A DNA stretch of 64,000 nt from Leptolyngbyaceae cyanobacterium (GCA_965263355.1 CBDHHL010000056.1:512001-576000), one strand, 5' to 3'; shown: positions 2,209 through 39,100, counted from the first letter of the stretch. Translations and numbers: made by a program. Notes: generated by a model not told the origin, from the sequence alone.

Positions 2209-5200
2209 CTATGGGCTCGTTGTACCAGTTGGTATTGCCCAACCATTGCGTATAGTATACCCAGCATCTTGTAACTGATTTAACTCTCTCCTATAAACTG
2301 TGTACTTGTATTTCTCACCGGGTGGCTTTTTCAAGGTTGACTTTTTAACTGGACTTACAAGCTTCACTGGTCTCCCTCCATCGATTGCACCTTGAAGCCA
2401 TGCATCGTTTACTTCAGGAGACCAGCCCTTCTTTGTCGTAACATTGAGCCAATGAAATCCTTGCTCAGGACCAACTCTAGAGGTATCGTCGAGACGCCCA
2501 ATAATAGAAGTCATACTGCTTGTTGCTGATTCTTGATACCATTCCCAACCAAGTATGGCCTGATTAGGATTTTTTTTGAATTTTTGATGATATCTTTCGT
2601 TAAATTCGCCGAAGGAGTTTATCAATCGTTTTGATGTGCCAATCTTATTGGCTACGACTGATCTTCGCTGAAAAGAACGTCTAAGATTACTGCGAGCACC
2701 GAGTATTCCCAAGCCAGACAACCCAGTCTGAAGCAGATCTCTCCAGGGGATTTCACCATTACAGCTTTCCCTCCAATTTCGATAGGCCCGCAGACCCGAT
2801 TCCCCTGTTTGATAAATATTGGCTCCTACATTTGTTAATTGAGCAAGACGAATACCATTCCTTGCCCATCGATTAAACTTAACAAAATCAGTTCCACGCT
2901 TTAACGATTGAGACCGATTTACCCAGGATGCGACTTTACCCACCTTGTCTGCATTTCTAACAGCGCCTGCTCCTCCAGGAATTGGTAGCAATAATGCTCC
3001 CACATCAGCCGTAATACCTACCCCATCAATCGCTGCATTTTTCCAGTCTCTTCTGCGTAAATTCACTCCTAATGATGTCACACCAACCCCTAGAGAGAGG
3101 AGATCCCAGCCTGATTCAACATAATTTCCAGTAGGATCAACATAATTCGGAGAACTATTGAAAACATACCGATAGAGATTCGCATCCCCAGCAGCAAATC
3201 CAATCGGATCTTCACTGATAAAGCGTCCTACACCAGAGTCGTAATAGCGTGCCCGATAGAAATACTGCCCACTCTCTTGGTCAAGCTCCCGTCCTGTATA
3301 TCCAAACCTAAAGTAAGCCGTAGTATTACTCTGATTTGTAACCTGTCCAAAAGAATCATAGGCGATGTGATTCAGCACCGTACCCTGGTTATTAATCACA
3401 TCCCGCACACTACCTTGATGGTCCGTCAAGGCCCAACGAGTTTCCCTGTTGGCAGTTTCTTCTGCTAGTATCTGGTCCACCTGCGGACCATGCAGATAGC
3501 GATAGGTCTGATTACCGTCACTGTCAAAGACGAGGGCAATATGGTCACCGTCGTAGACAAATCGTTCTTCTGTTGGCGCTTCTACACCTTCACCATCAGC
3601 ATCCACCACCTTAGCAATACGTCGATCATAAGCATCATAGGTGTAGGCTACTTCTCTGGTAACGCTACCATCACTACTTGTGGTCACCATTGCCGTCAGA
3701 CGATTGCGATGATCCCAGGTGTAGTCAGTGACTTCGTCCGTAGCGATGTCAACTCGGCGAGTACGGTTACCTTCGTTATCGTATTCGTAAGTATATGTAC
3801 CATCGCTTAGCAAACGATTATGGTCTCCAGTTGTATTGCTTGTGCGGTTACCAGTAGCGTCGTAGCTATACGCTTCATCATCTTGATGGTTGTAGTCAGC
3901 ACTCGTTAGCTCACTACGGTTGTTATAGCGATAGTCACTGATACCATCTGGCGTGACTAGCTGGGTTAACCGATCAGCGGCATCGTAGGTAAACCCATAG
4001 TTAGCCAGAATATCTGTACCGTGCTGATGCGTGAGACTTGTTGGCCTGCCTGCTGCATCGTAACGGTAGGCTGTTTCAGCTACAGTCTGGGTTCCTGCCA
4101 AGTCACTAAAGCGGCTTACCCCGGTCATCTGACTGGCCGCATCGTAGGCCATGTCCACTCGTTTCTCGGCTATCCCATTACCACTCTGGGTGACTTGGGT
4201 AACCCGATTCAGCAAATCATAGGCAAAGGTTTCCACACCAACTTGAATGCCATCAATACTGTCAGTAACACTTGTCAGATTATTGGCCTCATCATAGCCA
4301 TAGGTAAAGACGACATGGGATACACCAGGCGTATTGCTGTTATCAACCTCAATTAGTCGTCCGGCTAAATCATAGTCATAGGTGTAGACAGCATCGGGAT
4401 CACTAAGAGACTTAAGCTGGCTGGCCACATCATACCCATAAGTAATTGTGCGTATTAGGTTGTTATCATCATCTAACCATTGCTCAGTGTCTAATCGATT
4501 GAGGGCGTCATAAGCAAAGGTTTGGGTCCGACCATTGCGATCAACTCGCAATATTAGGTTACTGGCTTCGTCGTAGTCATAGGTGCGAGTCAGATCCACA
4601 CCATCCACCGTAATCGTCTCGGTCGTTAACAGGTCTCGCTCATCATAGGTGTAGCTTGTAACATTATCCGACGCATCCGTAATCGAGAGAATGTTACCCT
4701 CGTTATCGTAGGTAGTTGTTGTTGCCTGTTCCAGAGCATCAATGGTCTTGGTTTGACGGTTGAGTTTGTCATACTCATGGCGAGTTTGGTTGCCTAAGGT
4801 GTCGGTAAGGGATGTCAGGTTACCAACACTGTCATACTCATAGGTGAGTGTATGACCAAGTGCATTTGTTGTACGGGTCAAGAAGTCGCGACCATCGTAA
4901 TCGTAACGTGTTGTGCGGCCTAGCTCATCGGTGACTAAAACAACATTGCCGACTTCATCGTAACGAGTTTCTGTTGTGGCCCCATAGGCATCAATCGTAC
5001 GTGTCTGACGGTTGAGATTGTCATAGCTGTAGTTCACCACTCGTCCTAATTCGCCAGCCACTTGGATGAGATTTCCAAAGGCATCGTACCTGTAGTTCGT
5101 GCTATGGTTTAGCGGATCGGTGACTTGGGTTAAACGATTTAAGCTATCGTAAGTATAGGTGGTCTCCCGACCCAGTTCATCAATGGTGGAAAGCATATTA

Positions 5201-8200
5201 CCCACCCCGTCATAGCGATAGCGCATCTCCCCATCCAACGCATTGGTCGTCAAGACTAACCGATTGCGCACATCATAGGTGTAGCGTGTTTCATTCCCCC
5301 GCTGGTCAACAGAAACTGCAATATTCCCCACCTCGTCATAACTAGTTTGGGCTCGATTGCCAGCTGCATCCTCAATCTCAATCAAACGGCTGAGATGATC
5401 ATAGCGGTACCGTGTAATATGACCATTGCGGTCTCTCACAGCAACTAGATTATCCGCCGCATCATAGTCATAGTCTGTAAAGCGCTCTGTAGCATCTCGA
5501 ATTAAGATTAATCGTTGCCGTGCATCATAGAAATAGTTAGTGCGATTGCCTGCCGCATCCTCAATCATTGTGAGATTGTTATCCGCATCATACTGGTAAG
5601 TGATGGTGCCTCCCTCTGCATCGGTTTCCGCGATCAGTCGACTGCGTGCATCATGCTGATAGGTAGTCGTCTCTCCACGGGCATTGGTCATGGCTACCAA
5701 ATTACCTGCCTGGTCGTACACATAATCTGTTGTTTGGTCATCTGCATCCAACTGCTGGGTAAGGCGGTTTAGGGGATCATAAGCAAAGGATGTGGTATTT
5801 CCCCTGGCATCGGTCGTCTTAATCAGATTACCCGCCGCATCATAACCAAATAAGGTAACTGGTGCCTGCTGATCACCTGCGCCATCCGGGTCCGCATCCA
5901 CCTGCCGGATGAGACGGTTCATCACATCGTACTCATAGGTAGTGACGTTGTCATTCTCATCAATAAATTGAGTCAGATTACCGACTGTATCATAGCTAAA
6001 CAACTGGGTGGCTTCATCGGCAGTCCCCTTTGCCAAGGTGAGTTTGACCAACCGTCCAAGGTTATCGTAGTCATAGTCTTTCACCCGACCCAAATCATCA
6101 GTTTCAAAATCAACTAGGCCTGCATCAGTGTAGGTGTAGGTGGTGACAATATCATCACTGCCACCTTCTTCGCCAATCACATGACGCATTTCCAGCGTAT
6201 TTCCGTTTGTGCTATCTACTGTAAACAGAGTAGTACTGCCCAGCTCATCAGTAACTGAAGTGAGTTGACTAAAAGTATTGTCATAAGTGAACAACTTGGC
6301 ATTGACTAGCTCTCGTCGGTCGATAGCAGTTAACGGTGTCTCTGGTTCATCGGCAGGGTCTTCTGATAAGACACTCAGCTGATTAAGAAGAATATAACTA
6401 TTTTGTCGATCATGAAGCAGAACATCCGGTTCCTCGTCTAAGTTGAAATTACCAGTTAACAACGCATCTATATCAGATGGAATGGCATAGTCCTGATAGC
6501 GTTGACTATCTTGAAAATCAAATTGTCCGGTTTCATTGCCCAACAGTACTGATAGGATTGAATTGGGATATTTTCCAGCGGAAAGAATCAAATCGGCATG
6601 GCGATCATTATTAATATCGGCAATAGCAAGATTAGGTTCATCATTACTACTATCAAAACGGGTGATATTTTGAAGCTGTTGCTCACTAAACGAACCATCC
6701 CCACGACCTAAGAAGGTTTGCAAATAATAGCGATTGCTATCGTCTCCATCTTCATAGGTCAATGCGATATCGAGACTGCTATCACTATTTAGGTCTGCAA
6801 GCTTTAACCGAAAGTGATAGAGGAAAGTCTGTGTATCAGAACCTGGTGAAATTTGCTGAGCAAAGCTTTGGGTAAATGAACCGTCAATACTTCCCAACAA
6901 AGCAGCAAGGAAAACATCATTGTTATTGGTATCGTTCTCTAAATTCCCTCGACGCAAGTACACCAGATCATCTAAACCATCATGATTGATATCGGCAATT
7001 TGGGTAATAGATTCCCCATCATGATAGTCATTTGCATCATTGAGACTCACAACCGACGATGACGCTTCTTGGAAGTCACCTGTTTCATCACCCAGCCAAA
7101 TTACTAGTTCTGTAGTGTTGTCGTTACCCGCAACAAGATATGAAAAGTCAAGATTGCGATCGCCATTGAAATCCCCTACATTCAGATGCATAATTTGACT
7201 GGCAAAGAGCCATGGTGTTCCAACGGCTAGGGTTCTATTCTCATCAGTAATAATCGGTACAATCTGACTGAGTTCGGTCTGATAGTCATAGGTTGCTGCC
7301 AGAATATCTAATATCCCATCCTGGTTAAAGTCACCAGTAGCAACACTTTTAACAGTAGCGTCTAATTCAAATGCAATGGGTGTTACAAATGTGGCATCAC
7401 CATTATTAATTTGAAGAAAAACAGAATTCAGAGAATAATCTATCGACAGAAGATCGTCAAATCCATCACTATTGAAATCAGCAACCATGAGTTGTTCACG
7501 ACCTGGGGTCTCAAATGATTGAACAGTTCTATCAGGGAGGGGTAGCGTTAACTCAAAATCACCATTTCTTTGATTTAAGAGAATTGAAATGAATCCAGCT
7601 AACCCATTGCTACTAGCAACTGCAATGTCTGCAAAACCATCTTGGTTAAAGTCTTCAATAGTCAGTGTTACAGGCCATTCACCAACAGCATAATTGGCTG
7701 ACTCAATGAATTCTCCATTGCCTTGATTCAGGAGTACTGACAAGCTACTGTCCGATTCATTGGCTGTCAGAATGTCTAGGTATCCGTCGTTATTAATGTC
7801 CTTTAACTGCAATGAATCAGGTGCTGACTGAAACGAATCTCCATAGTCCCCAATGGTATAATCAGTTGCCAGTGTAAATTCAGTATTCGTCTCAGTCGAA
7901 TTAAGTAAGACAGATACTGTATCAGTCTCACCATTTACAGTAACGATATCGAGCTGATTATCACCATTAAGATCAGCTACCTTAACCTGGTGAGGTTGTT
8001 GACCAACAACATAATGTTCTACTTGAGTCAACGGTATTTCTGCGTTTCCAAAGAGCACTGTAACCGTTGTGTTATTCGTTTGGGTCGAGATAATATCATC
8101 AAACCCATCAGCATCTAAGTCCGCAATGGTGAAAGCGTTAGTTGCGTTGAGTGTTCCATCTGCACTGACTGTATTATGCGTGATAGGAGTAGAAAAGTTG

Positions 8201-11200
8201 CGATCGCCCTGATTGAGGAAAACCTCAATGCCGCCAACATTATTGGGGGTATTGATTTCAGCCTGTCTGACAATATCAATTTCACCATCACCGTTGACAT
8301 CGGCAAGTGCCATATGACCAATGTCATTGCTTTCGTTCAATGTTTCAAGATCGACCTGATCACTCAGGGCACGCTCTGGATTACCGAAGATAATAACCGG
8401 TTCGGATTTGGTATTGTAGAGGATGTCCTTGAAACCATCGTTATCGAAATCCGTGACCAGAATGTTATTTCCACTCTGATCATAATCGCCGCTAAGTCTG
8501 TTATCTCTAAGAGATACTTGTTCTACAAAGGTGCCATCACCATTGCCAAAGGCAACCGCTATTCCCCCTCTGTTGCTGCCAGAATCATTGACAATAATAT
8601 CTTGATTACCATCCCCATCTACATCATCAACGGCAATCGCGGCACCACTATGGGGCTGATTCTCAAAGGAAATACTATTACCGGCGCTAAAGCCCCCTTG
8701 GGCATCTCCAAAGAACAAAGAAATATGGGACGAGTAAGGAGTATCATTAGAACTCACCGACACTAAATCCAGATAGCCATCGTTATTTAAATCTTTGGCC
8801 ATTACTCGTTTAGGGGCCACAACTGGGAAATAGCCAGAATTACCAAATAGCTGAGAAGTAGCACTATCTGCATCAGAGCTACCTTGATTAACGATTCCAC
8901 TGGCAGAATAACCACTCTCCGACAGTTCATCCACCATACGAACTAGGTTGCCACGTTCGTCATATTCAAATGTAGTTGACTTGTTACGTCCAGTTGACAG
9001 ATTTTCTACTAGATTAGCGCTATTGCGTTGAACTGTATATTGAGTACCGACCTGGTCACGAACAGATACTGCTTGACCTGCCACATCTAAAGCCGTTATT
9101 TTTACTTGGCCACGTCCATCGCTGTAAGTAACTTGTGAACTATCGGGTGCATCAGGTAGTTTAGGTGCCACCAGAGGATCTTCAGAGGTTCTTTCTGGTT
9201 TATAAAGACCTTCTACCTGAGGAGGGTTCACCTTAATAATACGCCCATCTTTACCAATCGCTTGTTTGGCACGACCGGCAAAGTCATAAACAGCTTTTTC
9301 CTGATAGCCTCGCTTATCGATTTCACTGACCATATGACTTTTGTCATCGTAAATAAATTGACGACTAGTGCTATCAGGATCAGTAATATGCGTTAAATTA
9401 CCGTTAATGTCATACGTTAATAGCGTTTCACGATTAGCTGGATCAATAATCTTGGAGATACGTTCGTTAGTATATTCAAACCGGGTAGAGAGACCAACTG
9501 GATCAATAATCTCTGTAAGTTGTCCAATTGCATTATAAACATGCTGGGTTTGATTACCATTACGATCCGTAATCGAGACTAGGCGATTATTACTGTCAAA
9601 TGCATAAACTGTTTGTTCGTTAGTATATTCAAACCGGGTAGAGAGACCAACTGGATCAATAATCTCTGTAAGTTGTCCAATTGCATTATAAACATGCTGG
9701 GTTTGATTACCATTACGATCCGTAATCGAGACTAGGCGATTATTACTGTCAAATGCATAAACTGTTTGTTCTTTATCAATCCGCTGGAAGGTACCATTCT
9801 CAAGCTTTTTGAGTGTTGAAAAGTCACCGGGGGGAGCCACATATTCACCCTCGTTTTCAAATACAATTTCTGAGCCATTCCCATCAATGATGAGAACAGA
9901 CCCATCAGCATTTTCAATCAGCTCCTGAACACCTGCAATCCCCCAACCATTTCCAAGCTGGCTGCGAGTGCCATTAACATGCACAATGTTATTGGTAATA
10001 GTGCTAGAACGCCCTGAGAAACGACCATCCGACAATGCATAGATACCCGCTTGCAGATCATATTCATAGACACCAGACGCCAAGTCCTTCAGATTGGCTT
10101 GAATGGCAGGTTTTGCAGAAATACGGCCTCCAGTTTGAGTGCGTGATGGTACATTCCAAAAATGTTCACCACCCTCAAGACCATATTTTCCACCTTCATA
10201 ACCAGGTACTTCATATTCAAAATCACCCTGTTTGAAGGAAAGCTTAGAAATAACCCTAAACGTACTTTGTCTTGTACCATTGGCAGCAAATGTGAGTGGA
10301 ATATCAACATTAAAGTGAACAATAGGACTTGGATCTGCCCGCAGTGAATCGTAGGCTAGTGTTACTCCCCTAGAAATTCCTAACGACTGATATGAAACCA
10401 ATTCATGGGTTTCAATGATACCACCTGAAGCCAGATTTACATTCGAGGTGAAGGGAGCATCTTCTTCGTTGGCACCACAATAATGATCAGGATTACGTGG
10501 ATCACCACCACCTAAGTTAATTAATCCTCCAAGCGGCATAAAGAAATGCCATGAACTGTTGCGAATACCACCTTCAATTGTTTCAACAGAGTTACCATCC
10601 TCTGAAACAATACCAGTCCCCACTATTTCAAAATCCCCTGTAGTGGGGTTAATGGACCATAGCTCCATCTCCATACCGGCTGACCAACCTGCCCGGTTGG
10701 GTAGAGTTAATTGTGCCGGTATGTCAAATGCCATTTCCCCTGGCTGAATGGTGACCACCAGATCAGGAGATAGCCCTTCGGGTAATACAGCTGGTGTTAA
10801 ATCTGTAGGTACCTCTGAAATAGTGAATTGCCCGTCAAAAGGATTCCCTTCACGATCACTGAGCGAGTTTGCCGCTATAAAGACTTCAGCACCAAGACTG
10901 GCATTGGTAACGGTAATATTGTCCTGACTATCGATAGTTTGTTCATTATTAATAATATCTAAAGCGGGCAAGTAAATCGGACGCTCAATGACATTGTTCA
11001 CCCCTGCATAAAGATTGTGGCCTAGCACCAGGTCAATCTTCTCGGCTACATAGGGAAATACTTCTCCCGTAGGACTCTCATACTCGGTACCGTAAAACTT
11101 AAGCGTATCCGCTGCACCTGCAGGGCTAAAGGAAAGGTCATGGCCCATAAACTGACTCCAAGCTAGCATAAAGCCAGTCCCCCCTTGAGCGTCGGGAATC

Positions 11201-14200
11201 GGGTCTGTCTGGGCAAAGAGAGCATTACTAATATCACGGGTATTGGGTCGATTCTCTCCAGCTAACGAGCGGATGCCATCCCCATACTCCTGGGTATAGT
11301 TCACACCCATCAGGTCTCCTGGTGTTCCCTGCCCTGGTTGACCGTGATTGCTGCCATCAATAGCACCATACTCAGTTACGGTCTCACTGGCCACGGTTCC
11401 CGCTGCCTCAGATGCTGTAGGCGCTCCCTGACTAGAGAAGACATACTCTGGCAGCGTCGTAATATCCGTATTGCGCTGAATCAAACTGGCCAACGTTGTT
11501 CCACGAATGTCATCTAGTTCCGCTTGGGTAAACTGACCATTCTCATACCAGAAACGGTCTCCATCCCGCAGTCGGATAAATTGGTCTGCAATGATGGCCT
11601 GGAACAGTTCACCCACCATCGCACCAGAAACATGATCTTCAGCCAGTCCACCGACAATCACATCAATGTCATCGACCTTACCATAGAGCTGCTCTAGTAC
11701 TGTCTGTACCGTTATATTGCTGGTAATCTCAGCAAAGCTGGTTACTGGAGCTAAACCTATATCTACACGGGCCTGGTTATAGTCCGGTAAACCCACATCC
11801 CTGCCCCGTTCAATATCCACAGCAGCCAAGTCAATGCCCCCTGCCCCTGGCGGTCCAAATAAGGTGTTACGTAGTTCATCAATCACCTTGGTATCGATAG
11901 CCTCAGCGGACTGGGCATAGAGGCCACGTAGTATAGAATCAATACCGTACTGGTGAATAATTTCAGGGTTAAATGTACTTTCTCTTAACGATACTGACGG
12001 TAGGAGATCACCATTCTCATTTACCAACAGAAACTCGCTAAAGCTCTGGGTATGGCCCATACGGAAGGCAGCAGCAGAGAACAAATGACTAATAGCAGGA
12101 TCAACGTTCTCGTTATAACCGCTGTAAGTCTCTAGAGCATCACTACCAATCAACAACGGTAGATACTCACCATAGGTAATATGCTGAATCTGCGCCGCGA
12201 TCAGCTTTCTCACCCGGTTATAAATCTCATCTCCAGACAACTCTGGATTGGCAGCTTGAATATCAGTAGCCAGTCGGTTATGCTCTCTCACAAAGACTGT
12301 ATGCATGGCCGTCAGACCAATATTCTCATTGGCTCGGACATCGCCTGTAGCAAAGAGCATAGCCGGATCATTCTGACTACGGTTGCTGTTAGGCAATGGT
12401 CCATCGGGGAAAAAGTCGGTGTTGTTGAGGGGCAACAAATTATTATCAGAGACTTTTAGCTGCCCTGTACCATCTAGTGTTCGTAAGGCATTGGCAGTGC
12501 GAGTGTCATTACCATAGACCATACTGGCATTCATGTAGGCACTGACCAGATTGGGATGTCGCAGCGGATTACTAGGATCAGTACCAGTAGTCCCATCAAA
12601 GGTAGTTCGACGTAGATCAATTACCTGAGTACCCGTAAAGAACGGATCAAAGACGAGGTCACCAAGGGGTACAGCAATGTCTAGCTCATCAGTGGGAAAG
12701 CTGGTTTCTGGAATCGTCAGAGTAAAGTAGCCCTCAGAATCAGTGACTGTTTGAAGCCGACCCAACTCAATAGGCAGATTTGCTAGGGGTGTACCGTGGG
12801 TATCAAGTACGTGACCACTAATGCGCGTGGTGGTGATTGGGTCGGGTACAACAGTAAGGGTAACAGTCTGCTCAACAGTTTCAGCTCCATCAGTAGCGAT
12901 AACGGTAAAGGTATAAGAGCCAATATCGTGGGGGGTAGGTGCAAAGGACAAATTACCTGCACCATTGAGAACACCGGGAGGTAGTTCTGTATCGGTACGC
13001 AATGAATAGGTAACGCGGTCCCCGTCAGGGTCTGAAGCGTTGAGGGGAATCTCGATGTGCTGCCCTGGTAACACCTCAATTGGGTCAATCGGTTCAAAAA
13101 CCGGAGCCTGATTTGGAGCACCTACCAGCACTTGAGGCTTAAAGACAAGCTGCCATTCTTCCGGGTTATTGAAAGTAATTTCAACTGCATCAGAAAGAGC
13201 ACCCGGCGCTAGCCCACCTGAACGAATGGCATTGTAGAAATTGACATAAGGATTTCCATCACTATCTGTACCTGATACGGTCTCAAGACTAACGCTATCA
13301 GGCAGAGCGTCAAACACCACCACTGCCTGACGGCTAATGGATGTATCACTTGTATTATGTAATTGCAGTTGAGCAGTGTACTCACCTGTCTGGGCATTAA
13401 AGCGAATCTGGCTAAAGACAGGCTCAATAACACTGCTCGCCGACAAATTCTCAAGAGATAGCTCATCGCCCAAAGTGACCACCGTATAAGTATGTTCAAG
13501 CTGGATAGCTTCAGTTCCTTCTGGGTCAATGGTATTAGTTAACTGGCTAATGTGAATTTGACTGCCCGTATCACCATCTTGGTTCAGCAGTTGGAAAATT
13601 AGGTGACCATCGGTTTCTGTTTCCAGGGAGGTGAGATCAATCTCCACATACTGACCGTCATAGGTTACTAGTCCAGGGGTGAAGTCAGCAGTTTTTCCTT
13701 TCAAGGAGAACACTGGAGTACCAGGGGTGCCATTATCTAGCAATGTCTGACTCGGATCACTAGTGGAGACCAAGTACACTGCCAGGGTGTCTTTACTCGC
13801 AGGAGTATCGTTTGTTAAATCAAAGGCCGCATCCAAAGCAAACCTGAGCGTACGACTGCCTTGGCTTTGCCCCAACGTCACTGGTGCCTGAGCCTGGGTA
13901 ACAAAACTATTTCCCTCAGCTAGCAGAATCTTATTTTCTGATGTTGCTGCCCAGCCACTGGTATCGGTAGCCCCAATCACAAAAGCACTATCCGCCACCT
14001 CAAAGTCAATCACCTGTTCAGTGACATTGCCTGCTATATCAGTGAAACGAACTGTAAGTTGATGTGTGCCATCTGCTAAGGGCGACTCCTGAAGTAACCG
14101 ATCTAAGGTCTCCGTTACCTCTGTATCCACCGCTGTGCCACCATCTAGGATGGTGCTCAGGGTGCCTGCTTCATTAGTACTGCCTAGCAAATGCACCATA

Positions 14201-15138
14201 TTGCTGTGGATACCACTGACTAGGGGACTTGTCAGCGACAGTTCAGCAGCCGTACGATCTAGGATCATGCTAACTTTTACTGAATCGGAGACATTGCCCA
14301 GAACATCTTCAGCGGTGACTACAATGCTGTAGGCGTTATCTACCAAGGGATGGCCTACTAGTGTTGTTAGGAGGGACTCATCGAGGATGAAACTACCATC
14401 TGGCTGCACCTGATTCGTAATATCAAGGGTAGCCGCACCAACACGGGCACTAACTCGGGCAATCTCACTTTGATCACTGATGCTACCTACCAGAACAGGT
14501 GTCTGTGTAATTCCGTCGGTGGCATCTTGCCCCGTGTCCTCCTTCAATGCTAGAGATAGCGTGGGAGCAACACCATCAGAGCGAGTATCATGGTCTAAAT
14601 TAATGGGCTGATGGTCTACTTGCTGATCGACACCAAATTCTGTCGTACCAGTAGGAGAATTATTAGTTGGTTTATGAATATCAACATGCCCTATCTTACT
14701 CTCTGGGATAAATGGTTCGTTGCTATCGAGTAGGTTATCCATCGCTTCTAACCCAACAGTAGCTAAAAAGTCTCTAAAGTCTGATTGACCTATTAAAGGA
14801 TCAATACTTCGATCCGGGAAGGACTGAGAGGGACTCAATAAATTAGAGGATAATTGCAATGAGGCAAAAGAGTTTTTATTGCTCAGCAAATCTTTTTCGT
14901 TGTTTGATTCATTTAGCAATGACAGCTCTCTGATACCGAGTTCCATCCACTGACCTGGAGCCCCTACACCGCTAAACTGACCACCAGCAAACGGATTCAA
15001 TAGGTGAGCAAGCCACTCCCCTGACCAGACTGGACTACTACTATTAATAGGATTATTAGCAAATCCAGAACCAGATGATGCAAATAGATTAGACATAGCA
15101 AAATAGAGACACCACAAACGATGACCCACCGTAAACAA
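2209..15138 (-). CDS. Giant teneurin-like YD/RHS protein: Ig-like and cadherin-like domains, haem peroxidase, YD shell with FG-GAP/VCBS insert, RHS core, C-terminal toxin domain
   Basis: 4309-aa ORF with many YD repeats and the RHS core RFISEDPIGFAAGDANLYRYVFNSSPNYVDPTG. Also DxNxDGxxD FG-GAP repeats and peroxidase motifs GDVRANEN, FRMGH, ERGRDVG. Real start may be ATG 15096. Confidence 0.93.
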   Translation of the reverse strand: MFTVGHRLWCLYFAMSNLFASSGSGFANNPINSSSPVWSGEWLAHLLNPFAGGQFSGVGAPGQWMELGIRELSLLNESNNEKDLLSNKNSFASLQLSSNLLSPSQSFPDRSIDPLIGQSDFRDFLATVGLEAMDNLLDSNEPFIPESKIGHVDIHKPTNNSPTGTTEFGVDQQVDHQPINLDHDTRSDGVAPTLSLALKEDTGQDATDGITQTPVLVGSISDQSEIARVSARVGAATLDITNQVQPDGSFILDESLLTTLVGHPLVDNAYSIVVTAEDVLGNVSDSVKVSMILDRTAAELSLTSPLVSGIHSNMVHLLGSTNEAGTLSTILDGGTAVDTEVTETLDRLLQESPLADGTHQLTVRFTDIAGNVTEQVIDFEVADSAFVIGATDTSGWAATSENKILLAEGNSFVTQAQAPVTLGQSQGSRTLRFALDAAFDLTNDTPASKDTLAVYLVSTSDPSQTLLDNGTPGTPVFSLKGKTADFTPGLVTYDGQYVEIDLTSLETETDGHLIFQLLNQDGDTGSQIHISQLTNTIDPEGTEAIQLEHTYTVVTLGDELSLENLSASSVIEPVFSQIRFNAQTGEYTAQLQLHNTSDTSISRQAVVVFDALPDSVSLETVSGTDSDGNPYVNFYNAIRSGGLAPGALSDAVEITFNNPEEWQLVFKPQVLVGAPNQAPVFEPIDPIEVLPGQHIEIPLNASDPDGDRVTYSLRTDTELPPGVLNGAGNLSFAPTPHDIGSYTFTVIATDGAETVEQTVTLTVVPDPITTTRISGHVLDTHGTPLANLPIELGRLQTVTDSEGYFTLTIPETSFPTDELDIAVPLGDLVFDPFFTGTQVIDLRRTTFDGTTGTDPSNPLRHPNLVSAYMNASMVYGNDTRTANALRTLDGTGQLKVSDNNLLPLNNTDFFPDGPLPNSNRSQNDPAMLFATGDVRANENIGLTAMHTVFVREHNRLATDIQAANPELSGDEIYNRVRKLIAAQIQHITYGEYLPLLIGSDALETYSGYNENVDPAISHLFSAAAFRMGHTQSFSEFLLVNENGDLLPSVSLRESTFNPEIIHQYGIDSILRGLYAQSAEAIDTKVIDELRNTLFGPPGAGGIDLAAVDIERGRDVGLPDYNQARVDIGLAPVTSFAEITSNITVQTVLEQLYGKVDDIDVIVGGLAEDHVSGAMVGELFQAIIADQFIRLRDGDRFWYENGQFTQAELDDIRGTTLASLIQRNTDITTLPEYVFSSQGAPTASEAAGTVASETVTEYGAIDGSNHGQPGQGTPGDLMGVNYTQEYGDGIRSLAGENRPNTRDISNALFAQTDPIPDAQGGTGFMLAWSQFMGHDLSFSPAGAADTLKFYGTEYESPTGEVFPYVAEKIDLVLGHNLYAGVNNVIERPIYLPALDIINNEQTIDSQDNITVTNASLGAEVFIAANSLSDREGNPFDGQFTISEVPTDLTPAVLPEGLSPDLVVTIQPGEMAFDIPAQLTLPNRAGWSAGMEMELWSINPTTGDFEIVGTGIVSEDGNSVETIEGGIRNSSWHFFMPLGGLINLGGGDPRNPDHYCGANEEDAPFTSNVNLASGGIIETHELVSYQSLGISRGVTLAYDSLRADPSPIVHFNVDIPLTFAANGTRQSTFRVISKLSFKQGDFEYEVPGYEGGKYGLEGGEHFWNVPSRTQTGGRISAKPAIQANLKDLASGVYEYDLQAGIYALSDGRFSGRSSTITNNIVHVNGTRSQLGNGWGIAGVQELIENADGSVLIIDGNGSEIVFENEGEYVAPPGDFSTLKKLENGTFQRIDKEQTVYAFDSNNRLVSITDRNGNQTQHVYNAIGQLTEIIDPVGLSTRFEYTNEQTVYAFDSNNRLVSITDRNGNQTQHVYNAIGQLTEIIDPVGLSTRFEYTNERISKIIDPANRETLLTYDINGNLTHITDPDSTSRQFIYDDKSHMVSEIDKRGYQEKAVYDFAGRAKQAIGKDGRIIKVNPPQVEGLYKPERTSEDPLVAPKLPDAPDSSQVTYSDGRGQVKITALDVAGQAVSVRDQVGTQYTVQRNSANLVENLSTGRNKSTTFEYDERGNLVRMVDELSESGYSASGIVNQGSSDADSATSQLFGNSGYFPVVAPKRVMAKDLNNDGYLDLVSVSSNDTPYSSHISLFFGDAQGGFSAGNSISFENQPHSGAAIAVDDVDGDGNQDIIVNDSGSNRGGIAVAFGNGDGTFVEQVSLRDNRLSGDYDQSGNNILVTDFDNDGFKDILYNTKSEPVIIFGNPERALSDQVDLETLNESNDIGHMALADVNGDGEIDIVRQAEINTPNNVGGIEVFLNQGDRNFSTPITHNTVSADGTLNATNAFTIADLDADGFDDIISTQTNNTTVTVLFGNAEIPLTQVEHYVVGQQPHQVKVADLNGDNQLDIVTVNGETDTVSVLLNSTETNTEFTLATDYTIGDYGDSFQSAPDSLQLKDINNDGYLDILTANESDSSLSVLLNQGNGEFIESANYAVGEWPVTLTIEDFNQDGFADIAVASSNGLAGFISILLNQRNGDFELTLPLPDRTVQSFETPGREQLMVADFNSDGFDDLLSIDYSLNSVFLQINNGDATFVTPIAFELDATVKSVATGDFNQDGILDILAATYDYQTELSQIVPIITDENRTLAVGTPWLFASQIMHLNVGDFNGDRNLDFSYLVAGNDNTTELVIWLGDETGDFQEASSSVVSLNDANDYHDGESITQIADINHDGLDDLVYLRRGNLENDTNNNDVFLAALLGSIDGSFTQSFAQQISPGSDTQTFLYHFRLKLADLNSDSSLDIALTYEDGDDSNRYYLQTFLGRGDGSFSEQQLQNITRFDSSNDEPNLAIADINNDRHADLILSAGKYPNSILSVLLGNETGQFDFQDSQRYQDYAIPSDIDALLTGNFNLDEEPDVLLHDRQNSYILLNQLSVLSEDPADEPETPLTAIDRRELVNAKLFTYDNTFSQLTSVTDELGSTTLFTVDSTNGNTLEMRHVIGEEGGSDDIVTTYTYTDAGLVDFETDDLGRVKDYDYDNLGRLVKLTLAKGTADEATQLFSYDTVGNLTQFIDENDNVTTYEYDVMNRLIRQVDADPDGAGDQQAPVTLFGYDAAGNLIKTTDARGNTTSFAYDPLNRLTQQLDADDQTTDYVYDQAGNLVAMTNARGETTTYQHDARSRLIAETDAEGGTITYQYDADNNLTMIEDAAGNRTNYFYDARQRLILIRDATERFTDYDYDAADNLVAVRDRNGHITRYRYDHLSRLIEIEDAAGNRAQTSYDEVGNIAVSVDQRGNETRYTYDVRNRLVLTTNALDGEMRYRYDGVGNMLSTIDELGRETTYTYDSLNRLTQVTDPLNHSTNYRYDAFGNLIQVAGELGRVVNYSYDNLNRQTRTIDAYGATTETRYDEVGNVVLVTDELGRTTRYDYDGRDFLTRTTNALGHTLTYEYDSVGNLTSLTDTLGNQTRHEYDKLNRQTKTIDALEQATTTTYDNEGNILSITDASDNVTSYTYDERDLLTTETITVDGVDLTRTYDYDEASNLILRVDRNGRTQTFAYDALNRLDTEQWLDDDNNLIRTITYGYDVASQLKSLSDPDAVYTYDYDLAGRLIEVDNSNTPGVSHVVFTYGYDEANNLTSVTDSIDGIQVGVETFAYDLLNRVTQVTQSGNGIAEKRVDMAYDAASQMTGVSRFSDLAGTQTVAETAYRYDAAGRPTSLTHQHGTDILANYGFTYDAADRLTQLVTPDGISDYRYNNRSELTSADYNHQDDEAYSYDATGNRTSNTTGDHNRLLSDGTYTYEYDNEGNRTRRVDIATDEVTDYTWDHRNRLTAMVTTSSDGSVTREVAYTYDAYDRRIAKVVDADGEGVEAPTEERFVYDGDHIALVFDSDGNQTYRYLHGPQVDQILAEETANRETRWALTDHQGSVRDVINNQGTVLNHIAYDSFGQVTNQSNTTAYFRFGYTGRELDQESGQYFYRARYYDSGVGRFISEDPIGFAAGDANLYRYVFNSSPNYVDPTGNYVESGWDLLSLGVGVTSLGVNLRRRDWKNAAIDGVGITADVGALLLPIPGGAGAVRNADKVGKVASWVNRSQSLKRGTDFVKFNRWARNGIRLAQLTNVGANIYQTGESGLRAYRNWRESCNGEIPWRDLLQTGLSGLGILGARSNLRRSFQRRSVVANKIGTSKRLINSFGEFNERYHQKFKKNPNQAILGWEWYQESATSSMTSIIGRLDDTSRVGPEQGFHWLNVTTKKGWSPEVNDAWLQGAIDGGRPVKLVSPVKKSTLKKPPGEKYKYTVYRRELNQLQDAGYTIRNGWAIPTGTTSP
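9462..9771. repeat. Exact 153-bp in-frame tandem duplication inside the RHS gene
   Basis: 9462-9614 is identical to 9615-9767, bounded by GTTC microhomology. It duplicates the 51 aa EQTVYAFDSNNRLVS...TRFEYTN. Confidence 0.95.
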
Positions 15139-15417
15139 TGGGCAACCAGAAGAGAATAAGTATTGGAAAAAGAACTGTCGAGAGAGCCTGGCATCTATGC
15201 TCTAAAGAATGCCCTCAGACTCATCGTTATCGTAAAGTTTATGTCCTGTTTTCCGATGAGCAGATGTACGTAAATTTGGTCACCCAAAAAATATCTTCAC
15301 AAGAGATTTATCGAACCCTTTACTATGCTGTTCGATGCTTAATGATTGAGTAAAGATGAGAGTTAATAAACAGTCTTTGATAGCTTGAATTGAAATGCTT
15401 ACATGGTTTTGGTGTTT

Positions 15418-16346: not shown

Positions 16347-16751
16347 TTAATCGGGTTTAATAAATTCGAATTTTGATAGAACTATAAGAAAACACAGGAT
16401 GCGGTTAGGGCTAACCGCATCCACATTCAGATCTAAGTCTAATTGCAGAACGGTACGGTACAGAAACAGCAAGGCACAGAGTGCTTGATTTTGGGTGGAC
16501 GCGGTAACCTTTTTGGGAACGGCTAAATGAGTCAAAACTGCCTCAATTTCTGGGCCTCCCATATTTCTAGGATGCTGCCAATTATGAAATCGAATGTATC
16601 GCTTAATCCAATTGATGTAACTTTTTTCGGTTCGATACGAGTAATGTTTTACACGAATAGCATCACGAACAGCTTCTAGTAGAGTCCTAGGCTTAGATAC
16701 CGTGTTAATTAGTACGTAAAAACACTGAAACTCCTGTGTATCAGTTATCAC
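16347..16751 (-). pseudogene. intI: Truncated integron integrase, N-terminal SAM-like domain only
   Basis: LLEAVRDAIRVKHYSYRTEKSYINWIKRYIRFH...HP..MG..EI..LTHLAV...VTASTQNQALCALLFLYR is the IntI N-terminus. Similarity ends at ...NVDAV (~16412) and the catalytic domain is absent. Confidence 0.9.
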
Positions 16752-16863
16752 TTAGCAGTTCACTTAAACTATTTAAGGTACTTTAAAGCTTTCTGGATAA
16801 CTTATAGTTGTAGTGACCCGATTTAAATGTTATGGCTTGGGAACCCTTTAGTACAATGGGTCT

Positions 16864-16946
16864 CAACAACATTTCGTTGGAACCGACACTCCGTTAACCG
16901 CCTGACGTCGTTTAGACGGAAGTGCGGTTCAACTACACCGTTAGCC
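16864..16946 (+). mobile_element. Integron attC-like site
   Basis: AAC-ATTTC-GTT(G)GAACCG(A)CACTCCG pairs with CGGAAGTG-CGGTTCAAC-TACACC-GTTAGCC. R' GTTAGCC at 16940-16946. It lies just 5' of intI in the canonical divergent orientation. Confidence 0.8.
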
Positions 16947-16972
16947 ATCTTTAATCACTTGCACTTAATTGC

Positions 16973-17670
16973 TTAAGCGCTCTTTTTTTGCAGATAGGCA
17001 AAGGCCGCATTTGTGCCACTGCCTTGACCAAGTGCAATCTGAATATTGAGATGTGCCATACTTTCAAGATAGCGAGCGGTGTAGAGAGGACCAGTATCAA
17101 TCGGTGCGTAGCCGATATCCCTGGCTAGAGCAACAATCGTTTGTTTAGCCTCGTTGTTATCTCCTGCAATAAATGCAGTAATCGCTTGTCCACCTTCCAA
17201 AAGTTCACCCATAACATCTGCAAAAATAAGGTATCCACTCAAGCCGGGAAATTCTGGTTAAGTAGGAATCTAGAATCCAGGAGCCAGAATTTAGAAGGGA
17301 TATGGCTTCTGGCTCCTGACTTCTGACGTCTATCCTGAGGAAAACTTCCCGCTTTAAGTTGGTACCCCAAAAATAGTATTGAACGCTTTGACGACGTGAG
17401 CGCCTGCCAGCAGACGGTTAATTTCTTTAGATGCCGAGTTTTCCTGCCCAAGCGACTTCGGTGACCAGTCAGCATTGAGTGGATTTGTACTGTCGATGAC
17501 AATTTTTCCGTTTGTTGCCTCAGCTAGTTCTGGTAACACATCGACACAAGCAGTAAACGGAATAGCGATCGCAACAATATCTGCAGCGTTGGCAGCTTCT
17601 TTGAAAGTTGCAGATGGATAGGGTAATTCCTGATTTAGACTTGAGCGCAAGCCGATAATAATCTCGTGTG
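16973..17670 (-). pseudogene. NADPH-dependent F420 reductase-like (F420_oxidored) gene, interrupted by a MITE and 5'-truncated
   Basis: The halves ...KIVIDSTNPL...VVKAFNTIF and ADVM...AGDNNEAKQ...PIDTGPL..ARYLE rejoin in frame if the insert is removed. The Rossmann GxGxxG N-terminus is missing. Confidence 0.85.
17229..17367. mobile_element. 139-bp MITE with 8-bp target-site duplication
   Basis: Flanked by CAAAAATA at 17221-17228 and 17368-17375. Imperfect TIRs AGGTATCCACTCAAGCCGGGAA / TTCCCGCTTTAAGTTGGTACCC. Internal heptamer repeats are arranged as inverted arrays. Confidence 0.85.
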
Positions 17671-17779
17671 GACAGTCCCTTGTGGAGGTCCTTCGATATC
17701 GGGAGCAGACAATCAGGATTTCGTACAATAACGCTCTGTACCTCTAGAGTATAGAGTTCAGGTATGTAAATTTTATAAC

Positions 17780-35348: not shown

Positions 35349-36119
35349 TCAAGAAGATTTAACTCCACATGCAAAGATAGTATAGAAGAACCCCTGGTCT
35401 GCATATTCAGGTAAATCTCTAACACGAATGTCAAGATTAACAAAGCCATTGTCTAAAAAACAATTCATTACATCCTGAGGATTTAGTTCCGTAGAGGGGA
35501 AACAGGTCTCCCCTACGCGATAATAATTGCCTGAACCACAGGCTGAAGTAATAAGGGTACCGCCAGGCTTCACCATGCCCATAATATTAGTCATGTAGAT
35601 ACGCCATTCCTCTTTATTAAGACTAATGCCTTCTGCGCAGTAATGGGCGGTTACCAATGGGTAAAAGTTACGTTTAGTCTCTCCTAGTGGATTAGCCTGC
35701 CTGACATCACCTGGTGTAACAAGAGTAACTTTTTGCCGTACTTCTGACTCCCTCTGTTGAATCTCTGAAGGGGTAGGGGTTTGATGTCCTTCAAGTTGCA
35801 GTACTTTTTGAGTAAAAGAATGCCAATCGTAGGCTGTTTTATCAGCAGAGAACCATTTTTTTAGTTCGGTTAAATTGGACTCAACATATTCAGAAACATG
35901 AATTTCTTGGGTTTTGGTCACCAAAGGTAAAATATGGGAGATAATGGGTCCACTACCGAAATCTAATGCCACCGGAACAGAATCGATGCGCTTTAAAGAC
36001 TCAGTCAAAAACTCCAAACAGTATTGTTCATCAGGCATGATACCTGAATAATATTCTTGTAAATACTGTTTAGGATCCCAATCGGAATAATTGGCGTATT
36101 TAATCTCAACAGCTTGCAT
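35349..36119 (-). CDS. NNMT/PNMT/TEMT-family SAM-dependent methyltransferase
   Basis: WDPKQYLQEYY, LDFGSGP, SEYVESNL.EL.KW, AYDW, DV....PL, CAE, VKPGG.L and YYRVG...F motifs. Confidence 0.85.
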   Translation of the reverse strand: MQAVEIKYANYSDWDPKQYLQEYYSGIMPDEQYCLEFLTESLKRIDSVPVALDFGSGPIISHILPLVTKTQEIHVSEYVESNLTELKKWFSADKTAYDWHSFTQKVLQLEGHQTPTPSEIQQRESEVRQKVTLVTPGDVRQANPLGETKRNFYPLVTAHYCAEGISLNKEEWRIYMTNIMGMVKPGGTLITSACGSGNYYRVGETCFPSTELNPQDVMNCFLDNGFVNLDIRVRDLPEYADQGFFYTIFACGVKSS

Positions 36120-36172
36120 AGGTTTTCTCCAATTTTATCAAGGACTAGTCGTGTTCAGGGTGGTCATCAACA

Positions 36173-39100
36173 TTAACTAATATTGTCCAGATATTTTGCT
36201 AACAGGCAACTATCAATTGTTGGACAAGTAATATTGGATTGATTCAGGCCCTTTAGAGTATTTTGGCAATCAAACATTTGGGTGCCTGCTAACCAAATTT
36301 CTAATCGAGTAAGCGAATGTCCGTGCACAACTTCCGTCAAAATTTTAGCTAGTGGGCTGAGGGCGTTCTGCATTTTATTCAACTTAGTTTGCCAATGCTC
36401 ATAGGATACTTGTCTAACCGCATAGCCAACATTGTTAAGCTGATGGACAAGTTTATCTAACGGATAAGGGTAAGGATTTACTAGATGAAAAGCTTGATTC
36501 AAGGATTCTGTTTGCAATGATAGATGAACTATCGCTCGACTAACATAATCGACGGGTGTCATGTCGATTATCCAATCTAAATCAGGCGCACTTTCAAGCG
36601 CAATAACACTATTTAGAAAGCGGCTCATTAAATCTGTTGAGTTACATATTCCCGTTTGAGTGTGGCCGGTTACCATCCCTGGGCGATAGATACAAGCTGG
36701 AATACCCGCTGAAATCGCCCGTGTGATCAGCTGTTCTGCCACCCATTTGCTTTGGGCATAGCCGCCGACAATTCCAGATCCTTGGGCGATATTATCACTT
36801 TCATAAATAACCGATGGTCCCATGGTTAGCAATGATTCAAACACATCTAAGGTGGAGATGTAGTGAACGGGCTTAAGCCTATCATAGCTGGCAAGCTTTA
36901 ATATGGATTGAGTGCCCAGCACATTTGCCGCCTTTAAAGCTCCATAGGGGTAAAACAGATTCACACTTGCCGCACTGTGGTAAATGACATCTATAGTGTT
37001 AGCCAGGTGCTTAAATTGTTCTCTTTCTAGTCCCAAGAGAGGACGAGCTATATTGCCAATAAGGGGTTTGATTCTGCTGTAGGGAATATCAACATTTGGC
37101 AAATTCTGCTGTAGGGATTGACGTAATCGCTGATACCCTTCTGTAAGGGTTTGTGCCCGTACTAAGCAATAAACAGTAGCATCTGTATGTTGCAATAGGG
37201 TATGTAACAAGGAGGTGCCAATAAATCCTGTTGCCCCCGTTAATAAAATTGCCTTCGGATTTGTCCAATGTGATACAGGCTTTGACCAATGATTATATGA
37301 GGCAGCAGATGAAATCAGGTTAAGCGATGCTTCAGTCTCTAGTTCAGATAGAGACATATATTCTGTTATCGTAGAAGGCTTTCGGTCATGCTTTAATTGT
37401 TTGCCTACTAACTGTTTGGATAAATCTGCGATGGTTGGTTGCTTAAAGAAATCAGTAAAATTGAGTATTACTTTGAAAGAACGCTCAATTTGCGACATTA
37501 GCTGCATTACTCGTAATGAGTCACCACCCAACTCGAAAAAGCTATCATTAATCCCAATCGGTGAAATATTCAAAACATCTGCCCAAATACTGGCTAGTTT
37601 CTCTTCTTGAGCTGTTTCGGGTGCTACAAACAGAGCAGAGAGTTCTGGTCGGGACGAATCAGGTATAGGTAGCGCTTGTCGATCAATCTTACCATTGGCA
37701 TTGAGAGGAAAACTGTCTAACAGTACAAATGTTGCGGGCACCATGTACTTGGGTAGCTTTTGCATTGTATAGGTGCGCAGCTGAGTCGAAAGTGTATGGG
37801 CTATTTTGGCCTGGAGGGGATTATTGGCATAGGTATGCCAGACTTGACACGATGGTGGTGGGATGGGGGCTGGTAGTGGTTCAATACTCCCCAACTTATA
37901 GTCAACACCAGTGGCTTGGGGTTTAAACAGGGCATTAAAAGAACCATTATTGGCTAAACTGGGCCAGCTAATGGTCACATCGTAGGATAGCTCAGTCGCA
38001 AGCTGTTTGAGCGCTTCAGGATCGACGCCGACGATATTCTTAGTTTGCCTGAGATAATCTTTCAGATTAGCAACGTTACCAGAGAGTTGGATTTGCTTAC
38101 GTACATCAACAACACTGACATGGGGTAAAACTCTCGCATTAGGGATATTGCGAAAACCAAATACTTTGGTGGAGGAGTTCTTTAATCGTTGACGTAGTTC
38201 AGAAAAATCAGCATAGTGTGGCTGCCAATCTAACCAACGAGTTTCAAGTATGGATTGGGGCGTTGAGCCTACATGTAAGACAACGTCATAGCGAAATTGA
38301 CTTAGTTCATTATGAAATTGGCTTTGTTTCAGCAAAATTTGAACCTGGCTAATCTGGGGTAAATGCTTTTGCAGCGCCAAGAAAAAAGAAGGATCGATCG
38401 TGAGTTCTTCTTCTTGATATATCCTTTTCTGAATACGTTGCCAGAGTTCTGTGATGGGTAGGTCATCATCAGCATTGGCTAATTCTATAGCCGCTGCAAA
38501 TGCCTCTTGCAAGAGATAATTTCTGATGTCTCCGATAAACAGAGAACCCCCTGGTTTGATTAACCGTACAGCTTGTTCTATAACAGAAACTAAGTAATCA
38601 ATACTTGGGAAGTATTGTAAAACCGAGTTTAAGATGACCGTGTCATAGGAAGCAGGGGCTATATTTTCAAAGTTATCGGCAGCCCTATTTTTAAGGGTGA
38701 CTCGTGGTGCTAACTCTGGAGTCTTTGCCAACTGTTTTTTAATGTGGTCTAAAGAAACGTCTGATATGTCGGTGCCAATGTAGCTTTTACAGTGTGACAC
38801 TACTTGAAATAACAATAACCCTGTGCCACATCCCAGTTCTAAAACTCGTTCCGGCTTGAGTTGTAAGATTCGCTCAACAGTGGTGCTGACCCATTCCTGC
38901 ATCTCAATATCCGGCAGCAGCTCACCTGTGTAACTGCTGATCCAGCCACTGATGTTGAAAGTATCATCCCACTCTGTGTTGACTGTATTTAAGTGGTCAT
39001 CGTTATGAATTGCTTGCCATTGGTTGATTTGTTCTTGTTCTAGTTGGTCACGAATTGACCTGTCAGCAGTGGTGTTAGGGCAACTGCTTTGATCTGACAT

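Follow-up and report, generated by a model that had tools for sequence, protein, structure and literature searches.

A circularly permuted animal-type haem peroxidase in the stalk of a cyanobacterial RHS toxin carrier

We describe here an animal-type haem peroxidase, the two halves of which are encoded in reversed order, that lies within a giant protein of the RHS/YD polymorphic-toxin type on the minus strand of a DNA stretch of 64,000 nucleotides from a Leptolyngbyaceae cyanobacterium (GCA_965263355.1 CBDHHL010000056.1:512001-576000); this whole stretch is called the window, and coordinates refer to it. From the sequence, its homologues, a structural model and phylogenetic trees, we consider it practically certain that the peroxidase was circularly permuted once, acquired a linker between its old termini and came to sit in a five-residue loop on the stalk of an RHS toxin. 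As to its function, we favour, with a probability of about 0.5, an enzyme that would oxidise iodide or thiocyanate with peroxide outside the toxin shell.

An earlier reading made from the sequence alone (hereafter the sequence-only reading) had proposed the permutation, and the motifs that it quoted all lie on the minus strand where it had placed them: the insert starts at 12690, the proximal histidine is encoded at 12052-12054, the front segment spans 11370-11122 and the distal histidine is at 11140-11142. The An_peroxidase hidden Markov model of Pfam, for which two hits in swapped order had been predicted, matches residues (aa) 819-1234 with its positions 109-530 and the trailing 93 residues, searched alone, with its positions 5-88 (E 1.9e-10). 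Alignment with CyanoPOX (8s6c_A) pairs residues 4-420 of the insert with residues 95-506 of that chain and residues 469-526 with residues 32-89, which places the cut between approximately residues 89 and 95 of CyanoPOX. The front half of the fold is thus encoded after the back half, reversing the canonical order of the superfamily in which the segment of the distal histidine comes first. The cut had also been assigned to the loop at which myeloperoxidase (MPO) is cleaved into light and heavy chains, and this assignment holds: the trailing segment ends where the light chains of MPO and eosinophil peroxidase (EPO) end (1mhl_A, residues 64-107 of 108, E 0.052; 8ogi_A, residues 57-102 of 104, E 0.026; matches that are weak when taken alone, in the range 0.03-0.14), and MPO heavy chains overlay the leading segment from their residue 123 onwards (Z 33). 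Behind the trailing segment there is no second back half; the sequence of the carrier resumes four residues on. Among the matches listed, the new linker measures 18-23 residues in all 79 permuted proteins, with exactly 20 in 67 of them.

The insert occupies a loop of about five residues in a transthyretin-like β-sandwich of the carrier. When the downstream carrier region was used as query (best 120 of 323 matches), 92 of the matches listed had no haem peroxidase, and in all of these "empty" carriers the halves of the sandwich are contiguous, joined by 2-16 residues, mostly five. The split sandwich of the sequence-only reading is thereby confirmed, and relatives with and without the insert, for which it had suggested looking, were found (70 haem carriers and 92 empty carriers among the matches listed). 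Of 35 metagenome loci, 24 frames have an empty site and 10 contain all or part of the insert, two of the latter coming from one broken gene. Carrier genes are split into two frames in records L004, L006, L011, L022 and L082, through either real decay or sequencing error. An AlphaFold2 model of the sandwich with its insert, built with 40 sequences, has a predicted local distance difference test score (pLDDT) of 88.1 and a predicted template-modelling score (pTM) of 0.88, with local values of 90-93 in the new linker and 94 in the distal helix block. The sequential aligner that we used, which follows the back part only, matches this model to CyanoPOX with Z 34.2 and a root-mean-square deviation (rmsd) of 1.5 over 410 aligned residues at 47% identity, so the back part has the helical haem peroxidase fold. 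The superposition that had been recommended is therefore realised for the back part, which overlays both CyanoPOX and the MPO heavy chain, the front part lying outside the sequential alignment.

Could such an arrangement be produced by misassembly, or could the trailing segment be the stub of a truncated second copy? We consider the chance of either to be negligible, even if the RHS gene does carry one likely assembly error, an exact and in-frame tandem duplication of 153 bases (9462-9767) situated 1.3 kb from the insert, of which the contigs of runs X1, X2 and X3 all omit one copy, and even if direct tandem peroxidases exist in other proteins (P0124, P0125). Runs X1 and X2, which derive from one sample, gave single contigs over 9615-15400 and 2304-14334 that cover the insert and both of its junctions with zero differences. 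Since these runs may represent the window's own source sample, the homologues constitute stronger evidence. A search with aa 770-1400 returned the reversed order in 57 of the best 120 of 152 matches, the window's own protein included; together with a search of representatives (best 150 of 12,577 matches), at least 79 proteins share the permuted layout as well as the length of the linker, 70 with the flanks of this carrier and nine in other settings. The full count of permuted proteins is 81, since P0227 and P0233, considered below, have to be added to these 79, which share one origin; 14 two-domain long peroxicins are not counted. The hosts are cyanobacteria and planctomycetes, including Leptothoe, Nodosilinea, Cyanobacterium aponinum, Aquisphaera, Botrimarina and metagenome-assembled genomes of Pirellulaceae. 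Moreover, comparison with two relatives that are about 88-90% identical gave ratios of nonsynonymous to synonymous substitution (dN/dS) of 0.055-0.062 in the back part and 0.028-0.073 in the front part, compared with 0.22 in the RHS repeats, values that are approximate as synonymous distances are near 1. Both halves of the peroxidase are under purifying selection; the front part, which is the only source of a distal histidine in the protein, is hence no decaying stub. On these three grounds, shared order, junction-spanning contigs and selection on the trailing segment, we have rejected the artefact.

In phylogenetic trees of the back part alone, the enzymes with this permutation form one clade without any canonical member (FastTree support 1.0 with 190 rows; SH-aLRT 95 with 67 rows), with the qualification that IQ-TREE was run as a quick tree without bootstrap and that sampling centred on the query could hide canonical members of the clade. 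Eight proteins of this clade (P0056, P0057, P0134, P0141-P0144 and P0150), as well as loci L012 and L013, carry the enzyme in a second loop of a related sandwich, the one that follows its first strand. They are giant proteins with Big_5, dockerin, TSP3 and LVIVD domains, two of which end in an M10 metallopeptidase, and no RHS repeats appeared in the five that were scanned. As this group nests inside the clade beside P0052 (support 96, IQ-TREE), the permuted enzyme has moved as a cassette. The carrier tree further requires at least eight changes of label for the haem enzyme, five of them forced by well-supported branches, which indicates repeated gain or loss. The pair P0227 and P0233 represents a second, independent permutation, cut about 35 residues later and grouping with canonical enzymes; their host looks Ig-like, with the insert apparently between its last strands. 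As to precursors, P0124 and P0125 are direct tandems of canonical peroxidases with short junctions (nine residues in P0124), the kind of intermediate able to yield a permutation. P0124 falls in the sister group of the permuted clade by FastTree (0.93), a join that is not resolved in the quick IQ-TREE. Two further members deserve mention: in P0130, a protein of 974 aa, a permuted peroxidase forms the C-terminal end, nests among RHS-borne copies in the tree and is apparently freed from its carrier, and P0148, possibly a chimeric contig, has only the back part, within the permuted clade, followed by a tail that by eye resembles a lytic transglycosylase. By its best matches (8s6c and 6erc) the insert would be assigned to a Family 6-like type, the trees having contained no named reference enzymes.

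We examined the active site by alignment to CyanoPOX, with residue roles as described in PMC11776367. The copy in the window keeps the distal His1333, Gln1329 and Arg935, the ester-forming Glu938, the proximal His1029 and the propionate-binding Arg1026 and Arg1111. The signature G-Q-x-x-D-H-D of the distal side (PMC4420034) is recognised by Gln1329, His1333 and Asp1334, and R-x-x-E by Arg935 and Glu938. Among the 57 permuted proteins the distal His and Gln are invariant (57/57 each), as are the distal Arg and the proximal His (55/55 each), with the ester Glu in 50 of 55; in the larger permuted set the corresponding values are 80/80 for the distal Arg, 80/80 for the proximal His and 74/80 for the ester Glu. 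The pair of propionate arginines is also invariant, in enzymes that are about 50% identical across 55-80 sequences. The sequence-only reading had noted that the ester-forming Asp before the distal histidine is replaced by Gly while the Glu is retained, and this is correct (Gly1332, Glu938), but the pocket is altered further than it had recognised: Asp1108 stands in the place of the Asn that is hydrogen-bonded to the proximal histidine (CyanoPOX Asn376; PMC4420034 describes His-Asn as the proximal pair of the family), and the calcium ligand Asp144 of CyanoPOX corresponds to Asn870. The latter position is Asp in 70 of the 77 permuted rows that have a residue there, and other residues of the distal calcium site (Asp1334, Ser866 and Ser872) are kept. 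The losses of ester Asp and proximal Asn are trends of the permuted family, and they co-vary, the proximal Asn being present in 19 of 19 permuted enzymes with the ester Asp and in 13 of 55 without it, albeit in related rows.

Given the invariant set of His, Arg, Gln and His, the permuted enzyme very probably binds haem and activates H2O2, and an active enzyme of modest oxidising power appears to be the likeliest outcome. A module that has kept the fold and lost peroxide turnover, serving for haem capture, adhesion or as a spacer, would be consistent with the three substitutions around the haem of the window copy (Gly1332, Asp1108 and Asn870). We think this very unlikely, since the distal His, Arg and Gln, the proximal His and both propionate arginines do not vary across 55-80 permuted sequences and dN/dS is about 0.06. 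What substrates would such an enzyme use? The combination of Gly for the ester Asp and Asp for the proximal Asn makes oxidation of chloride or bromide doubtful. A useful precedent is DdPoxA, in which Ile takes the place of the ester Asp: this enzyme turns over iodide and thiocyanate rapidly and bromide only very slowly, and it does not oxidise chloride (PMC5787809). CyanoPOX performs best on iodide, also when its haem is bound non-covalently (PMC11776367).

The carrier has the features of a polymorphic toxin protein, as the sequence-only reading had maintained. Its shell comprises 21 stretches of RHS_repeat (E 2.5e-146) and matches RhsA (7q97_A, E 9.9e-58); a DPxG autoprotease motif ends at aa 4004, with an upstream Asp at 3977 and Ser replacing the leading Pro of PxxxxDPxG; and the C-termini are hypervariable, the 40 pattern-readable tails of 55 proteins falling into 38 clusters, with the toxin domains Ntox50 and Gln_amidase in the tails of relatives. 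The toxicity of the window's own tail is putative: its 305-aa C-terminal domain had no match in Pfam, and the look-alikes found in an atlas, unnamed Bacillota proteins (0.91) and a PT-TG cluster (0.81), serve as leads only. The small gene behind it, of 175 aa, has a 78% homologue behind the same C-terminal domain in locus L081, and none behind that domain in Leptothoe spongobia (L001:13710-14144); it was not found in the 251 cyanobacterial genomes searched, nor did the atlas give a match above 0.77, and a predicted complex of its product with the last 143 residues of the giant protein, folded without alignments, scored 0.00, which speaks neither for nor against a pairing. Loci L003 and L005 present the order main gene, small gene and orphan RHS piece.

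Upstream of the shell, the region of the ZU5-like and plug-like domains gave a weaker model (pLDDT 72.3, pTM 0.50). Its ZU5/GAIN-like domain resembles the ZU5 of ankyrin (3ud1_A) at a middling score (VIA Z 9.4, rmsd 3.3, 128 aligned), and its FN-plug-like domain weakly resembles both a teneurin-like protein (TLP; 9ifo_A, VIA Z 8.1, rmsd 4.9, 194 aligned) and teneurin-2 (Z 7.5). The sequence profile of this region had no match in the PDB, and Foldseek returned weak matches with teneurins among them. The transthyretin (TTR)-like domain that precedes the plug matches CarboxypepD_reg with E 0.0067 here and 3e-5 and 7e-5 in relatives, all below the cut-off. The NHL propeller that defines published TLPs has no room, YD-type hairpins starting directly after the plug-like domain (about aa 1720), and no NHL family was found in the Pfam scan. 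For this reason we do not file the carrier as a TLP: the teneurin-like character proposed earlier would extend to the TTR-like, ZU5-like and FN-plug-like parts and not to a propeller. Nor is the enzyme displayed on the shell, as had been imagined, for its position is in the stalk N-terminal of the shell plug and not in the shell wall. Being upstream of the plug, it would lie outside the shell if the layout follows that of published TLPs and teneurins. A ZU5 domain at the N-terminus of RHS toxins has been described before (PMC3482391).

The course of events that we envisage is the following. A bacterial animal-type haem peroxidase was almost certainly permuted on a single occasion, in the surface loop that follows the distal-His helix and corresponds to the cleavage loop of MPO, and a 20-residue linker closed the old termini; the new termini, being adjacent, let the whole enzyme settle in the five-residue loop of the stalk sandwich. 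Located outside the shell, as the place of the stalk before the plug suggests, the enzyme would bind haem and activate H2O2 with its invariant residues; with no more than one haem ester and with His-Asp as its proximal pair, it would be suited to the easy substrates iodide and thiocyanate, and not to chloride. Short-lived oxidants would then be made at the cell surface or contact zone, either as a second short-range agent beside the C-terminal toxin packed in the shell, or as a means of ridding the surface of competitors and their signals, a role in which vanadium haloperoxidases would serve on sister carriers.

The strongest argument for selection on halide chemistry comes from these sister carriers, as two unrelated families that use peroxide and oxidise halides are found in one position. 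All three motifs of vanadium haloperoxidases, together with PAP2/VCPO matches in Pfam, were present in 21 of the 92 empty carriers among the matches listed (P0262, P0263, P0264, P0267, P0269, P0272, P0274, P0278, P0280-P0283, P0287, P0293, P0295, P0320, P0324, P0327, P0337, P0338 and P0340), and in none of the 70 haem carriers, several of which are partial. The vanadium enzyme precedes the sandwich by 100-700 residues; its own order is the normal one, and it does not interrupt the sandwich. Six further loci carry it (L086, L089, L096, L128, L130 and L131), named hosts include Dolichospermum, Okeanomitos, Trichormus, Calothrix and Synechococcus PCC 6312, and some of these proteins are labelled "phosphatase PAP2 family protein" in databases. 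In an even sample of 400 cyanobacterial genomes there were eight carriers, of which three bear the vanadium enzyme and five neither enzyme, the haem enzyme being absent from all eight; some are cut by contig ends. In 401 genomes of planctomycetes, with four candidates scored per genome, there were two carrier matches, of which one lay in the centre genome and the other was too short for classification. The vanadium label changes at least nine times on the carrier tree, and scanning 18 chosen, not random, RHS carriers against Pfam showed no other enzyme family upstream of the shell. These distributions suggest that the vanadium enzymes provide independent support for halide chemistry. Since vanadium enzymes are reported to halogenate quorum signals (PMC11312541), such signals offer a lead to the target.

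Two other readings fit part of these data. The first is an active one-electron oxidase, which would cross-link sheath or matrix proteins and phenolics through dityrosine, or oxidise Mn(II) in the manner of MopA, and so anchor the giant protein or harden the biofilm. The loss of the ester Asp coupled with a change of the proximal Asn to Asp, Gly, Ser or Thr looks like retuning, the stalk is built of adhesin-type domains, CyanoPOX oxidises guaiacol, ABTS and 2,6-dimethoxyphenol (2,6-DMP; PMC11776367), and MopA is a haem peroxidase within a giant protein that oxidises Mn(II) (PMC6247904). Yet the halide-binding Gln is invariant (57/57), the alternative enzyme of sister carriers belongs to a haloperoxidase family, and the insert, at 25-32% identity to the RTX peroxicins, does not belong to their type; we judge this reading to be rather unlikely. 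The second, which we deem unlikely, is a protective sink for surface H2O2 coming from photosynthesis, competitors or the oxidative burst of an algal host, which would spare cell and carrier, any halide or donor being incidental. The haem and vanadium families do both consume H2O2, the catalytic residues are constant while those tuning oxidising power vary, and early cyanobacterial members have been suggested to cope with reactive oxygen (PMC4420034); however, a haloperoxidase on a stalk would convert peroxide into more reactive products, which is poor detoxification (PMC9138014), and nothing ties the locus to oxidative-stress genes.

Several observations weigh against the favoured oxidation of iodide or thiocyanate beside a toxin. 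The haem pocket of the permuted enzymes has drifted away from the halogenating pattern, according to their aligned sequences: the proximal Asn is retained in 36 of 80 permuted enzymes but in 86 of 92 canonical ones, and for the ester Asp the corresponding figures, among readable sequences, are 19 of 74 and 87 of 89. The Asn421Asp mutant of MPO reportedly loses chloride oxidation. The location of His1333 over the haem is deduced from the global confidence of the model and from conservation, and the activity, haem binding, expression and location of the enzyme are all predictions from sequence. Most carriers have neither oxidant enzyme (71 of the 92 empty ones, and five of eight in the even sample), which makes it an accessory, and the permuted enzyme, being found also in non-RHS proteins, does not need the toxin. 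The mutual exclusion of haem and vanadium enzymes is drawn from related, often partial sequences, with eight and nine label changes respectively. In the neighbourhood of the gene we identified neither a peroxide source nor a secretion system, and no signal peptide was seen when the N-termini were inspected by eye; no RNA data set was listed as containing the insert. Finally, surface proteins with a ZU5 domain are already known to gather enzymes of various kinds (PMC3482391).

A broader proposal, which we offer as tentative and more apt to fail than to hold, is that a family of giant RHS toxins from cyanobacteria and planctomycetes bears on its stalk an exchangeable oxidant slot, filled by either the permuted haem peroxidase or an unrelated vanadium haloperoxidase. 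Such proteins might be two-weapon devices, in which reactive halogen made at the contact point damages or opens the neighbour and the toxin packed in the shell follows; the permutation would have turned the haem enzyme into a portable cassette that fits into loops, and its His-Asp proximal chemistry would be new. The parts of the giant protein and its candidate immunity gene are collected in table 1.

Table 1. Positions in the window of the giant RHS protein, its parts and the adjacent small gene
Feature	Position	Strand	Remarks
RHS/YD polymorphic-toxin-type giant protein	2209..15138	-	Start at TTG gives 4,309 aa; the database form starts at ATG (15096) and has 4,295 aa
N-terminal Ig-like stalk	12853..14568	-	Pfam Big_13 aa 191-294, Big_9 aa 676-762; unassigned domains between
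Split transthyretin/CarboxypepD_reg-like β-sandwich, half 1 (aa 771-810)	12709..12828	-	Pfam match below cut-off; continuous with half 2 in empty carriers
Entry linker into insert, 6 residues	12691..12708	-	
Peroxidase back part (aa 817-1236), equivalent of MPO heavy chain	11431..12690	-	From Pfam and CyanoPOX alignment
New linker, old C-terminus to old N-terminus	11380..11430	-	17 aa by segment bounds, 20 aa by profile ends
Peroxidase front part (aa 1254-1339), equivalent of MPO light chain	11122..11379	-	From profile and CyanoPOX matches
Exit linker (4 residues) and sandwich half 2 (aa 1344-1394)	10957..11121	-	
ZU5/GAIN-like domain (aa ~1393-1536)	10531..10962	-	Occupies the position that the TIP domain has in bacterial teneurin-like proteins; fold match, middling score
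FN-plug-like β-sandwich (aa ~1538-1720)	9979..10527	-	Fold match, weak
YD/RHS shell	3127..9978	-	Interrupted by FG-GAP repeats at ~6967-8793; closed by DPxG cleavage motif at 3127-3138
Variable C-terminal domain, 305 aa	2212..3126	-	Putative toxin without named family
Candidate immunity gene, 175 aa	1539..2066	-	142 bases downstream of RHS gene

Just upstream of the RHS gene, an N-terminal fragment of an integrase and a fragment of an F420 oxidoreductase (16347-17728) hint at a mobile or decaying region. Farther away on the minus strand, 35349-40579 encodes a single-module protein resembling non-ribosomal peptide synthetases (adenylation with embedded methyltransferase, carrier, terminal reductase) and then a methyltransferase of the NNMT/PNMT family, while 42022-45537 encodes a protein of 1,171 aa with five CHRD stretches and RTX repeats.

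Two known kinds of protein, the animal-type haem peroxidase and the RHS toxin carrier, are thus joined in a way that is not described in the literature searched. Among the top-ranked papers, in which subscription journals were mostly missing, we found no description of a natural permutation in the peroxidase superfamily or of a haem or vanadium peroxidase fused to RHS proteins; the word peroxidase is absent from the main texts of PMC13018210 and PMC3482391, the supplementary domain architectures of which could mention such fusions. Databases name the permuted proteins only "peroxidase family protein" or after their repeats. A natural permutation of the MPO/lactoperoxidase fold at the loop cut by a protease in mammals shows that the boundary between light and heavy chains is a structural hinge reused by evolution, and the permuted enzyme offers a ready single-chain scaffold for insertion into loops of other proteins. 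It also supplies natural variants at the ester Asp and the proximal Asn, residues thought to be nearly fixed, so that their role in halide specificity becomes testable without engineering. That two unrelated haloperoxidase families were recruited to one toxin carrier points, in turn, to a hitherto undescribed connection of halogen chemistry with contact-dependent competition within mats and biofilms.

Compared with known systems, the insert is closest to CyanoPOX of Cyanobacterium sp. TDX16 (8S6C; PMC11776367), of the short LspPOX/Family 6 type, which is its best match in both sequence (E 2e-121) and fold. The two share the distal His and Arg, the ester Glu, the proximal His, the propionate arginines and most calcium ligands, but CyanoPOX has canonical order, is free-standing with a PEP-CTERM tail, and has Asp80, Asn376 and Asp144 where the insert has Gly, Asp and Asn. 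DdPoxA of Dictyostelium (6ERC; Z 32.6, rmsd 1.8), a secreted antibacterial oxidase of iodide and thiocyanate, similarly lacks the ester Asp and forms one ester via Glu (PMC5787809), yet it is a single domain in canonical order that keeps the proximal His-Asn-Arg triad. The mature two-chain forms of MPO and EPO tolerate a break at the same loop as the cut of the insert, by proteolysis and with order unchanged, whereas in the insert the break is genetic, the order reversed and the old termini linked. Long peroxicins and MopA also place a haem peroxidase of this superfamily on a giant extracellular protein, but with 25-32% identity to the insert, in tandem domains with RTX repeats, without RHS shell or toxin and not within another domain. 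On the carrier side, BiTLP (9IFO/9PT5; PMC13018210) and ZU5-RHS toxins (PMC3482391) have in common with our protein the Ig stalk, a putative TTR-like domain, a domain at the ZU5/TIP position, a putative plug, the YD shell, DPxG, a variable C-terminus and a small downstream gene. BiTLP differs in having an NHL propeller of about 325 aa between FN-plug and YD shell, whereas the carriers have none after the plug and their shell is interrupted further on by FG-GAP or LamG blocks; cyanobacteria and planctomycetes are not among the six phyla given for TLPs in PMC13018210.

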